Virus record (IMG/VR): IMGVR_UViG_2667527953_000022
From: a virus
Taxonomy: Monodnaviria > Loebvirae > Hofneiviricota > Faserviricetes > Tubulavirales
Reading direction: 5' to 3' (one strand)
DNA length: 4,631 bases
Part shown: positions 1,574 through 3,574 of the stretch, piece by piece
Layout of the letters: each line of letters opens with the position of its first letter
Numbering within the stretch: the first letter of the stretch is position 1
Program-made: the position numbers and the translations under genes
The notes under the pieces: generated by a model
The model's database searches: none
What the model was told of the DNA's origin: nothing
What the model saw: only the letters and a program-made list of their open reading frames with translations

Positions 1574-3574
1574 TCAGGGACAGTTATTGTCACAAGTCCA
1601 AGGGTCGGCTTCGCCGCCCCCACCCGCCGCGCGGGAGCGCGTCGTGCGGTGCCGTGAAGCCGACGAAATAAACACAGATTCATAGCTGCTGCCGCTTCTG
1701 GCTTCCTCTGCGCGGATTTTTTCTGAGGGGGTCATACGGCGGACAACACAACCCATAAAACGGGTTATGACCGGAACAGGGCCAAACATGAAACCGGAAA
1801 TCACCGGTGCGCAGGGTTCACCGTAACGGTTAATACGGGGCTTACCACCTTCCTGCGGCTGAACGTAAAACGGACGAAGCAGACGTTCAGAACAGAAGAA
1901 ACCGCCGTTCAGCAGGATATAGGTCCGGAAATCGCCTGCATCACAGGCCATGCGGATGGCTTCCAGTTCGGCGACCTGCTGCGGCGTGAACTGCTGCATA
2001 TTGATATGATGCGCCTCAAGCGGTGCGCGGAAGCTGCGCATCTGGCGGTAAGCCGTGACGGACGGAACGCCAAAGAACTGGAACAGGCGAAGGCGCGTTG
2101 CTTTCTGCCAGCAGGCGGCACGGCTGACGGCATCACAGAATGAACGGGCAGAATAACGGTCATTCAGGGCGGTAATACCATCCGCACTGACATCACCCGC
2201 CATTTTGGTGATGTACTTCACGATGTAACGGAAACCATCACCCTTTTCAGGGTCAATAGCCTCAATACAAATACGGTGCTCTTTCGCCCCCTTTTCATCC
2301 GGCTCATCGCGCATGGCCTCTTCACGGAAAATGGCCAGCACCGTTGCGCTCTCATGGGGATTGCAGTAAATCAGGAAATTCCAGTGCGTTGTACCGTCAG
2401 CATGAGGCTCGACCGTACGCAGGCCGGGTATCTGAATACCGGCTTTATCCAGTCTGCGGCAGACCCGACGCCAGACGGTATTCAGCCAGGCGTGCGAATC
2501 CTTAACGGTCGGGCAACCTGCTTCCCACCATTTTTTATTCGGACGAGAATGCCATTTTCCGGCAACATTAAAACTGGTCGTCGGGTGAAAACGTGACGGC
2601 GTGGTGAGCACGATGAAGTAACCGGACAGCCCCATATCTTCGGACAGTTCACAGACGGCCTTTCCACGAACGCAGAGTTCAGCAATCCGGTTTTTCGGAT
2701 TCGAGACTGAGGCGTTATGCGCATCTTCCAGCGTACAGACCAGCTCATTAAAGGCATCAAAGACGCCGGAGGACCGGAGATACTTTTTCACGCGTTTACT
2801 GCGGACAGCAAACAGGTCACGATGCCAGTCAGAAATATAAGGCGCGTTGCGGTTCAGTATGCCGAGCATGCGATAGACCTCATTAACCCGCTGGTCACGG
2901 ACAACCCGCAGGAAACGGGTGACAAAAGCCAAATCAGTCAGACGCTTAAGCAATCCCTCATCGCCGTAACGCTCATGATAAGTGGCATAAACGGGTGCGA
3001 AATCAAAGCCGGAGATGGCCCGAAAATAGGCCATCACATTGAGAAGGTGATGCTCTGGTACATCACTATAAATGGCCCGGGAAACAAGGCAGTCACGAAC
3101 AACCGAATCAGCCACCTCAGCAAGCTGTTCATCAGTGCAGAAAAGCGAGAATTCATAAGGGTCTCCGTCCTGATTGAAGAAAGCAAAACGGTGCGCGGAC
3201 TCAAGCGCCATCAGCGCATTTTTCACACCGAGCTGATAAACAAGACGGCAGAAAGCGTGTGCCACGGTGAACGAAAACGAGCCAAACTGTGAAACCAGTC
3301 CGGCAGCCTTACCCCTGTCAGCGAGAGATAAATCCGTGCAGTTAATTCCGTAAATCACACGGTCAACCTGCGTGTTACGCGGCAATGCGAGCTGTGCAGA
3401 TAAGGTCCCGACCTCATCACGATACTGGCGGGAAAGCGTGGAAAGGTTGCGGGTGGCAACATCGCGCTCAGTCCGAAAATGCTCGCGTTCGGACAGCGTC
3501 AGGCAGGGACGACTAAGGGCAACGGATGCCGCGTCGATGGCGTTATACGCTGTGAGGATGGTTGATTCAGTCAT
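1574..3574 (-). CDS. Rolling-circle replication initiator (HUH-type endonuclease), phage P2 gpA / phiX174 A family, 666 aa
   Basis: Long ORF with three family motifs. Motif 1 [13 protein letters not shown] (about 2579..2617) resembles P2 gpA FITLTAPSKYHPT. The motif-2 region [16 protein letters not shown] has H-W-N at 2378..2386. Motif 3 RYIVKYITK has two Tyr spaced YxxxY (codons 2225..2227 and 2213..2215). The start is taken as ATG 3574..3572, preceded by GGGAGAGGAG and overlapping the upstream ORF stop as ATGACTGA; the track ORF extends to a TTG at 3676 with an implausible W-rich extension. Confidence 0.85.

Follow-up and report, generated by a model that had tools for sequence, protein, structure and literature searches.

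An asparagine in place of the second HUH histidine is conserved in P2 gpA-type replication endonucleases of enterobacterial filamentous prophages and co-varies with two further residues

HUH nucleases are defined by two metal-binding histidines, and to our knowledge HUQ is the only widely recognised natural exception among Reps. P2 gpA-type endonucleases are characterised by site-specific origin nicking and by action in cis, and HUH endonucleases by ssDNA cleavage that depends on a divalent metal. The origin of P2 is located within gene A. For P2 gpA, covalent attachment to the 5' end has been demonstrated, and the protein carries motif 1 (F-x-x-x-T-x-P-S-R-F-H), motif 2 (E-P-H-x-D-G-x-x-H-W-x) and motif 3 (Y-x-x-K-Y-x-x-K). 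The HUQ motif is widespread among CRESS-DNA viruses and Replitrons (PMC10288648), and duck circovirus Rep binds Mn2+ through Glu44, His52 and Gln54, the last being the glutamine of its HUQ motif (PMC9973303). RepB of pMV158 coordinates Mn2+ via His39, Asp42, His55 and His57, with Ser36 hydrogen-bonded to the second HUH histidine, and in TraI Asp81 tunes a ligand histidine via a hydrogen bond (PMC5030251). Asn119 of the E. coli TnpA-REP protein has been assigned to the metal site (PMC6006769), and the MbeA relaxase of ColE1, in the summary given by PMC5030251 (citing Varsaki et al. 2003), carries the signature HEN instead of the histidine triad. The HUQ and HEN exceptions indicate that departure from H-U-H is accepted within the HUH superfamily.

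We analysed a window of 4,631 nucleotides, from the virus record IMGVR_UViG_2667527953_000022 in IMG/VR, and located its Rep gene, the Rep motifs and the adjoining open reading frames (Table 1). Rep matched Pfam PF05840 Phage_GPA (E=2.1e-48; 165.5 bits against a curated cut-off of 31.4) and PHROG 91 'nicking at origin of replication' (E=1.4e-127), and RefSeq homologues of equal length were annotated 'replication endonuclease'. Homology to P2 gpA extended over the full length at ~23% identity, and the three motifs aligned residue for residue. Motif 3, which aligned with GYIAKYISK of P2 gpA, contained the Phage_GPA feature Y-x-x-x-Y followed by Lys. These matches identify Rep, by homology, as a Y2 rolling-circle initiator of the P2 gpA type, within the HUH superfamily and belonging to a filamentous prophage. 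Rep differs from P2 gpA in its host element, a filamentous phage of ~8 kb rather than a 33-kb myovirus, and at three positions: Asn stands for the second HUH histidine, Val for the motif-1 Thr322, and Thr at residue 387 for the V of P2 gpA. The Reps of Vibrio filamentous phages (VFJ/fs2 orf698, pre-CTX RstA-like) are likewise Phage_GPA-type and encoded by inoviruses, with ~30% identity to Rep over most of its length, but the VFJ protein keeps the second histidine (EPHHDGTPHNH; H-N-H, with Asn at the U position) and the motif-1 T.

Table 1. Positions of the Rep gene, its motifs and the adjoining reading frames in the window
Feature	Coordinates	Strand	Remarks
Rep / replication endonuclease CDS	1574..3574 (666 aa = 1577..3574; ATG at 3574, TGA 1574-1576)	-	Pfam, PHROG, RefSeq homologues
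Motif 1, F320-I-V322-L-T324-T-P-S-R-F-H330	2585..2617	-	V322 instead of near-universal Thr
T387, putative cross-strand neighbour of N399	2414..2416	-	co-varies with 399
Motif 2, E389-P-H391-A-D393-G-T-T-H397-W-N399	2378..2410	-	variant HUH (H-W-N) with upstream E, H, D
N399 codon AAT (plus-strand att)	2378..2380	-	minus-strand translation of 2357-2416
Motif 3, Y450-I-V-K-Y454-I-T-K457	2204..2227	-	two catalytic tyrosines and lysine, on helix 448-459
82-aa ORF	3570..3815	-	directly upstream of Rep, overlaps Rep start; annotated hypothetical; weak PHROG 3104 match
141-aa ORF	1118..1543	-	directly downstream of Rep; no family assignment; PHROG 30648 (unknown function), E=7.8e-95

Alignment of Rep with P2 gpA and the Vibrio phage VFJ Rep placed N399 in the column of the second histidine of P2 gpA EPHHDGTPHWH, and the P2 gpA region (OU784750; VVEPHHDGTPHWHMMLF) matched motif 2 of Rep column for column. 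A previous sequence-only reading of this DNA had reported an Asn codon (AAT, plus-strand att at 2378..2380) at the second HUH histidine, had quoted the P2 gpA motif and had noted that the upstream HH doublet is HA. The translation and the OU784750 alignment bore out the first point, the quoted motif was correct, and the HA pair was seen in the translation. The range given for the motif, 2378..2400, runs from N399 to part of A392 and falls within it; the whole of E389-N399 occupies 2378..2410. The canonical E-P-H-H-D-G-T-P-H-W-H with both HUH histidines is absent from Rep, which carries H397-W398-N399 instead of the superfamily HUH signature. We searched the whole 666-aa protein for a further H-x-H and found none. 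The histidines conserved family-wide were solely H330, H397 and, at 80%, H391; since these are so few and no other H-x-H exists, the true HUH motif does not lie intact elsewhere in Rep, as the earlier reading had allowed.

E389, H391, D393, H397, Y450, Y454, K457, H330 and T324 were all invariant in homologue alignment A1. Across 317 Phage_GPA proteins, exceptions numbered five at T324 (Ser), two at E389 and three at D393, and H330 and H397 were 100% conserved. To judge from these alignments, the catalytic residues of Rep other than the second HUH histidine are intact.

To place N399 among relatives, we ran a word-indexed protein search with Rep, which returned 92 homologues. In their MAFFT alignment, H-W-N was present in all of P0001-P0038 that covered the column, from 98% to ~41% identity, in E. 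coli, Salmonella, Morganella, Providencia and Xenorhabdus; among the remaining, more distant homologues in this alignment, all that covered column 399 had H. Whether close homologues carry H or N here had been posed as a check, and the answer is N throughout. An exhaustive phmmer search of 1.84 billion representatives yielded 1,903 family members, with a sharp gap in score between full-length members of the clade (≥344 bits) and everything else (≤200 bits). The same H-W-N motif was found in genomic loci of Salmonella enterica subsp. diarizonae and five Xenorhabdus species, and the Asn codon was AAT in most relatives and AAC in X. szentirmaii, with synonymous variation in the flanking codons. 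The Rep gene was present in 40 of 5,426 complete E. coli genomes as 71 chromosomal copies (≤5 per genome; 88.8-98% nucleotide identity to the window gene), all with the identical Asn, and full-length matches in E. coli were annotated 'replication endonuclease'. Comparison with an E. coli copy of 89% identity gave a Nei-Gojobori dN/dS of 0.126 over the whole gene and 0.044 in the nuclease core (aa 300-470); comparison with a copy of 94-95% identity gave 0.111 over the whole gene. The Rep gene is under purifying selection. The invariant Asn, the use of both Asn codons and the low dN/dS together exclude a sequencing error, a recent mutation or a decaying pseudogene, and indicate that N399 is a conserved, selected state of this clade.

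We examined the genetic context of Rep in the window and in related genomes. Besides the 82-aa ORF, which accompanies Rep as a conserved partner in the prophage copies of E. coli, the window holds Rep, the 141-aa ORF and small membrane-type ORFs. An ORF of the same size as the 141-aa ORF follows Rep in the Xenorhabdus locus L005, and from its place in the gene order the 141-aa ORF may encode an inovirus ssDNA-binding protein. In E. coli TD225-C4, the window sequence lies within a filamentous prophage of roughly 8 kb, present as a tandem pair adjoining hipBA, with the order 82-aa ORF, Rep, 141-aa ORF, small membrane-type ORFs, Phage_Coat_A, Zot and secretin. The inovirus morphogenesis module (Phage_Coat_A, Zot, Secretin) was found in the E. 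coli copy L001, Zot also in Xenorhabdus L005 (with secretin) and Salmonella L004, and the Xenorhabdus and Salmonella relatives had a gene layout equal to that of the E. coli prophage. The Rep of the HWN clade sits in complete inovirus modules. We searched the phage collection for isolates that form plaques or particles and carry an HWN Rep and found none (best match to the window Rep <60% identity), and the best match of the Burkholderia HWN Rep in that collection was 39.6% identical. We also looked for an episomal replicative form and found none in the E. coli assemblies; the only match to a plasmid record was a 363-kb one of Citrobacter youngae.

To determine how the two states are distributed across the family, we compared 317 aligned Phage_GPA proteins of ≥450 aa, a set enriched for relatives of the window Rep. 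Column 399 held H in 265 of them and N in the other 52, with no third residue. We also scanned IMG/VR with matched degenerate DNA patterns for the HWN and HWH forms of motif 2. E-P-H-x-D-G-x-x-H-W-N was found in 18 contigs and E-P-H-x-D-G-x-x-H-W-H in at least 120. All 18 HWN contigs were 4-11 kb long and belonged to the enterobacterial clade (42-99% identity to the window Rep); HWH was also found in contigs of 4-10 kb. These results show that Asn is a minority state in Phage_GPA as a whole, not the family norm. The suggestion that Asn might be normal at this position therefore holds for the enterobacterial inovirus clade, where it is universal, but not for the wider family. Because it is common to 52 of the 317 members, the Asn deviation is a marker of a sub-type and not grounds for exclusion from Phage_GPA. 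Position 391 also varied (H/Q/N/M, with H392 whenever 391 was not His), so the family tolerates His/amide exchange at a second likely ligand position. We considered the change from HH to HA as part of the adaptation to Asn and rejected it, since HWH proteins too can have H-A, H-K, H-Q and similar pairs, and HWN proteins can have H-H.

We next scanned all alignment columns for residues common to close and distant HWN proteins and rare in HWH proteins. The scan returned exactly two partner columns, 322 and 387. Position 322, the first Thr of motif 1 (F-x-T-x-T-x-P-S-R-F-H), was V in 51 and I in one of the 52 N-state proteins, and T in 262 of the 265 H-state proteins. Position 387 was T in 52/52 N-state proteins; the H-state proteins had V (170), I (68), T (16) or another residue (11). 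The joint states at 322/387/399 were T-[V/I]-H in 235 proteins, V-T-N in 51, T-T-H in 16 and I-T-N in one, plus a few singletons, and neither T-T-N nor V-T-H occurred among the 317 proteins. The coupling of 322 and 399 recurred among homologues of P0120 ((T,H) 107, (V,N) 8, (S,H) 1) and in the Reps of viral contigs ((T,H) 99, (V,N) 17; the motif-1 pattern had no match in the other 22). The presence of T-T-H and the absence of T-T-N and V-T-H suggest a probable route in which V387T came first as a permissive step and was followed by the changes at 322 and 399, tightly coupled to each other. As far as these alignments reach, the pairing of the Asn state with V (once I) at 322 and Thr at 387 is newly recognised here. 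Our literature search, with subscription journals covered in part, found nothing on an H-U-N variant or on 322/387 coupling in P2 gpA/Phage_GPA. Neither co-varying position had figured in the earlier reading of this DNA.

The N state also occurred outside the enterobacterial clade, in P0120, P0203, P0199 and P0209, in a Zoogloea-like group (P0271, P0308, P0317, P0352) and in a Burkholderia pseudomallei group (P0320, P0325, P0326, P0331). At the other columns specific to that clade (363, 403, 497, 509 and 511), these distant HWN proteins still have the ancestral residues. For neighbour-joining (NJ) trees we left out the diagnostic columns. Bootstraps recovered the enterobacterial HWN clade as monophyletic in 100/100 and 60/60 replicates and the N-state proteins as a whole in 0/100 and 0/60; the N state split into 4-7 clades with a mode of 6. 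Domain-wise similarity showed that the Zoogloea-like, Burkholderia, P0199 and P0209 lineages are mutually affine and that the enterobacterial clade is among the sequences least similar to them; P0203 was unaffiliated, and P0120 was affine to the Zoogloea-like and Burkholderia groups in the core only. On this comparison we rejected, for the enterobacterial clade versus the others, the idea that the N state arose once and that recombination of the nuclease core has hidden this. The Zoogloea-like, Burkholderia, P0199 and P0209 lineages may go back to a common origin. We claim, with NJ on such diverged sequences being not decisive, that the N state appears to have arisen at least twice and possibly three or four times. 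The distant HWN Reps of B. pseudomallei and Zoogloea lie in tyrosine-integrase islands, and that of P0120 lies in a prophage encoding a 'Viral coat protein P2' with the domains P2_N and P2_C, which we take to be of the PM2/corticovirus type.

To consider how Asn could be accommodated, we modelled Rep with AlphaFold2 from a 42-sequence alignment and obtained a model of good confidence (mean pLDDT 89.2, pTM 0.86). In the model, motif 1 lies on strand 317-323 and Y450, Y454 and K457 on helix 448-459, and DSSP places E389 at the end of strand 384-390, H391 at the start of the 391-395 loop, and H397 and N399 on strand 396-404. All elements of the HUH fold are present, namely the motif 1 strand, the HUH strand in a hairpin and the Tyr-bearing helix. 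PDB sequence searches with Rep and with the 42-sequence profile returned no homologue, only spurious helical-repeat matches. The five-residue loop sets a hairpin register with the pairs 389-397 and 387-399, in which T387 would lie directly opposite N399 on the same face and E389 opposite H397. The proposed 322-399 and 387-399 contacts and the ligand set likewise derive from the register of the strands and from what is generally known about HUH folds.

On balance, we consider it probable that N399 is the normal, selected second-HUH state of the enterobacterial filamentous-prophage clade and that Rep is an active Y2 nuclease. A divalent cation would be held by H397 and by the amide oxygen of N399, which replaces an imidazole nitrogen, and E389 and/or H391 and D393 on the adjacent strand and loop could serve as further ligands. 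A relaxase-type site of three histidines, with H391 as the third ligand, was weighed against a Rep-type Glu (E389), given that 391 can be H, Q, N or M. The phage origin would be nicked by Y450 or Y454, and Rep would then be covalently joined to the 5' end. In the H state, the T322 hydroxyl would act as second-shell partner of the H399 imidazole, with V or I at 387. In the N state, the shorter amide would be oriented by T387 from the other flank, and 322 is Val, which is isosteric with Thr. In this way the second-shell hydroxyl would leave the motif-1 strand for the partner strand of the hairpin, accommodating the replacement of His by Asn.

Known HUH proteins offer partial parallels to such a site. 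The circovirus HUQ Rep has an amide ligand, and its Glu-x7-His-x-amide spacing equals the E389-x7-H397-x-N399 of Rep. HUQ Reps differ in that Gln is one methylene longer than Asn, and in being Y1 enzymes without detectable sequence homology to Rep and, in CRESS-DNA viruses, fused to an SF3 helicase; a coupled motif-1 Thr-to-Val change is not described for them in PMC9973303 or PMC10288648. MbeA belongs to the HUH superfamily like Rep and has its His triad replaced by an Asn-containing set, but in the account summarised by PMC5030251 it is a conjugative relaxase whose first HUH histidine is also replaced (Glu), with no sequence relation to Rep. The H-x-x-D...H-U-H arrangement of RepB resembles H391-x-D393...H397-W-N399, and its Ser36, which from its sequence position would lie on the hairpin partner strand, parallels T387; RepB nevertheless keeps HUH, is a hexameric Y1 enzyme and is not a sequence homologue of Rep. 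Together with TraI and TnpA-REP, the HUQ, HEN and RepB precedents make an amide-ligand site at N399 plausible, and the H-W-N variant falls within the known plasticity of HUH sites.

It is unlikely, in our estimation, that N399 is not a metal ligand at all, with the Phage_GPA site being redundant (E389, H391/H392, D393, H397, H330) and Asn, T387 and V322 serving to keep sheet packing and hydrogen bonding. Phage_GPA motif 2 does hold unusually many candidate ligands within 11 residues, in addition to the invariant H330, and the RepB D42A mutant, with one of four ligands removed, shows ~90% activity at saturating Mn2+ (PMC5030251). However, Ala at any of the three histidines of TraI or minMobA abolishes metal binding (PMC5030251), and column 399 was never A, S, L or any residue other than H or N in the 317 proteins. 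A column restricted to H and N is the pattern expected of a ligand position, like H/Q in CRESS Reps, and argues against a non-ligand role.

We regard as doubtful the proposal that the HWN Rep is attenuated or specialised (lower metal affinity, altered metal preference or a cleavage/rejoining bias) and was selected for low replication in dif-integrated prophages. In coordination chemistry, exchange of an N-donor for an O-donor is expected to shift metal affinity and selectivity, and such a swap at 399 should alter both in Rep; moreover, the close-clade copies found were all chromosomal prophages or inovirus-sized viral contigs. Yet elements other than inoviruses have the identical triple state as well, and many Phage_GPA Reps of inoviruses retain HWH or HNH (Vibrio VFJ; 4-10 kb HWH contigs). 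An attenuated enzyme overlaps with an active one using Asn as ligand rather than excluding it. The chance that faulty sequencing or assembly produced the Asn, or that a decaying prophage has recently acquired it as an inactivating point mutation, is negligible. One C-to-A change would turn CAT (His) into AAT (Asn), but the Asn is present in 71 E. coli copies, 18 viral contigs and homologues to ~40% identity in five genera, both Asn codons are used, the core dN/dS is ~0.04 and two co-adapted substitutions accompany it. The sequence-only reading had offered an HUQ/HUN-like variant that still binds metal, a reduced-activity protein or a single-base change. The first is best supported, conservation argues against decay as a basis for the second, and the third, as a private change or read error, is refuted by the homologues down to ~40% identity.

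These results indicate that a sizeable, selected subset of P2 gpA-type initiators has Asn for the second HUH histidine. Motif screens requiring H-U-H will miss or mis-call functional Reps, and in genome annotation an H-W-N Rep should not be flagged as defective; an equivalent screening caution has been raised for HUQ in the Replitron paper (PMC10288648). The three-residue swap at 322, 387 and 399 can be made in both directions and offers a testable model of second-shell tuning at the HUH site, and an HWN Rep is a possible scaffold for HUH-tag engineering, perhaps with different metal needs. More tentatively, and with slightly less than an even chance in our judgement, H-W-N with V322 and T387 would be a discrete, co-adapted HUH-site architecture with at least two origins, a coupled three-residue switch and altered metal preference or affinity. 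If true, this 'HUN' class would be natural, previously undescribed and comparable to HUQ.

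In the family alignment of 317 Phage_GPA proteins, the histidine at residue 330 of the window's Rep, which closes motif 1 (P-S-R-F-H), was invariant (317/317), a conservation equal to that of H397. H330 is not known to belong to the classical HUH description, and in the Phage_GPA family it may serve as an additional ligand or take part in catalysis. At column 391, His was present in 80% of the proteins, and the remainder carried Q (40), N (22) or M (2). Column 392 was always His where column 391 was Q, N or M, and it was variable (H, A, K, R, Q, V and others) where column 391 was His. 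The pair contained at least one His in every family member aligned, suggesting from the alignment that 391 and 392 are interchangeable ligand positions. The 'U' position of the HUH motif is normally bulky and hydrophobic; the Rep of Vibrio phage VFJ carried Asn there (H-N-H, within EPHHDGTPHNH), and a few other Phage_GPA members had H, Y, F, L, M or Q. The features described here are located in the following table.

Coordinates of the features in the window and in related loci
Feature	Location	Strand	Basis or remark
82-aa ORF	window 3570-3815	minus	overlaps Rep start codon (ATGA overlap)
Divergent 66-aa ORF	window 3949-4149	plus	PHROG 2503, E=7e-27, unknown function
Rep H330, end of motif 1	window 2585-2587	minus	family alignment
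Rep residues 391-392	window 2399-2404	minus	family alignment
Large imperfect palindrome / ssDNA hairpin	window 4374-4467; L001 (E. coli TD225-C4 locus) 12304-12410	plus in window	folding
Two Rep genes of tandem pair	L001 1186-3186 and 9514-11514
Prophage with P0120 Rep	L153 (metagenome contig SRR24908198_4554) 8001-17872

Upstream of Rep, the 82-aa and 66-aa ORFs were separated by an intergenic region of ~130 bp, which is probably the phage regulatory region and possibly also holds the phage origin. Folded as ssDNA, the window's palindrome formed a hairpin of -35.8 kcal/mol (z = -8.65), and none of 200 shuffles reached equal stability. Its arms were similar to those of E. coli dif (XerC and XerD), with 2-3 mismatches per 11-mer and a 5-nt spacer. 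At the boundary between prophage and chromosome in E. coli TD225-C4, ~75 bp from the hipA stop, a perfect copy of the dif XerC arm with three central bases, GGTGCGCATAATGT, was joined to the phage arm; the window had the phage version, GTACGCACAATGT. The palindrome looks like a CTXphi-type folded-ssDNA attP, with XerCD-mediated integration at dif predicted from these sequences. Filamentous phages that integrate at dif characteristically form tandem arrays; the TD225-C4 chromosome carried the prophage twice, as a head-to-tail pair (L001 1-12411), and other E. coli genomes held up to 5 Rep copies.

The last window position matched by E. coli chromosomes was 4472, and the remaining ~160 bases (4473-4631) were AT-rich and unlike the hipA flank of TD225-C4. 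Therefore, the window may originate from a tandem-internal junction, a circular junction or another host. A Citrobacter youngae record contained a Rep gene 97.8% identical to that of the window.

The prophage encoding P0120, a distant Phage_GPA Rep with HWN in place of the HUH motif, also encoded a 'Viral coat protein P2' with P2_N and P2_C domains, which we take to be a PM2/corticovirus-type capsid protein. Therefore, one Rep family, with one HWN/V/T state (N399 at the second HUH His, V322 and T387), is used by both inoviruses and a lineage of tailless membrane-containing dsDNA phages.
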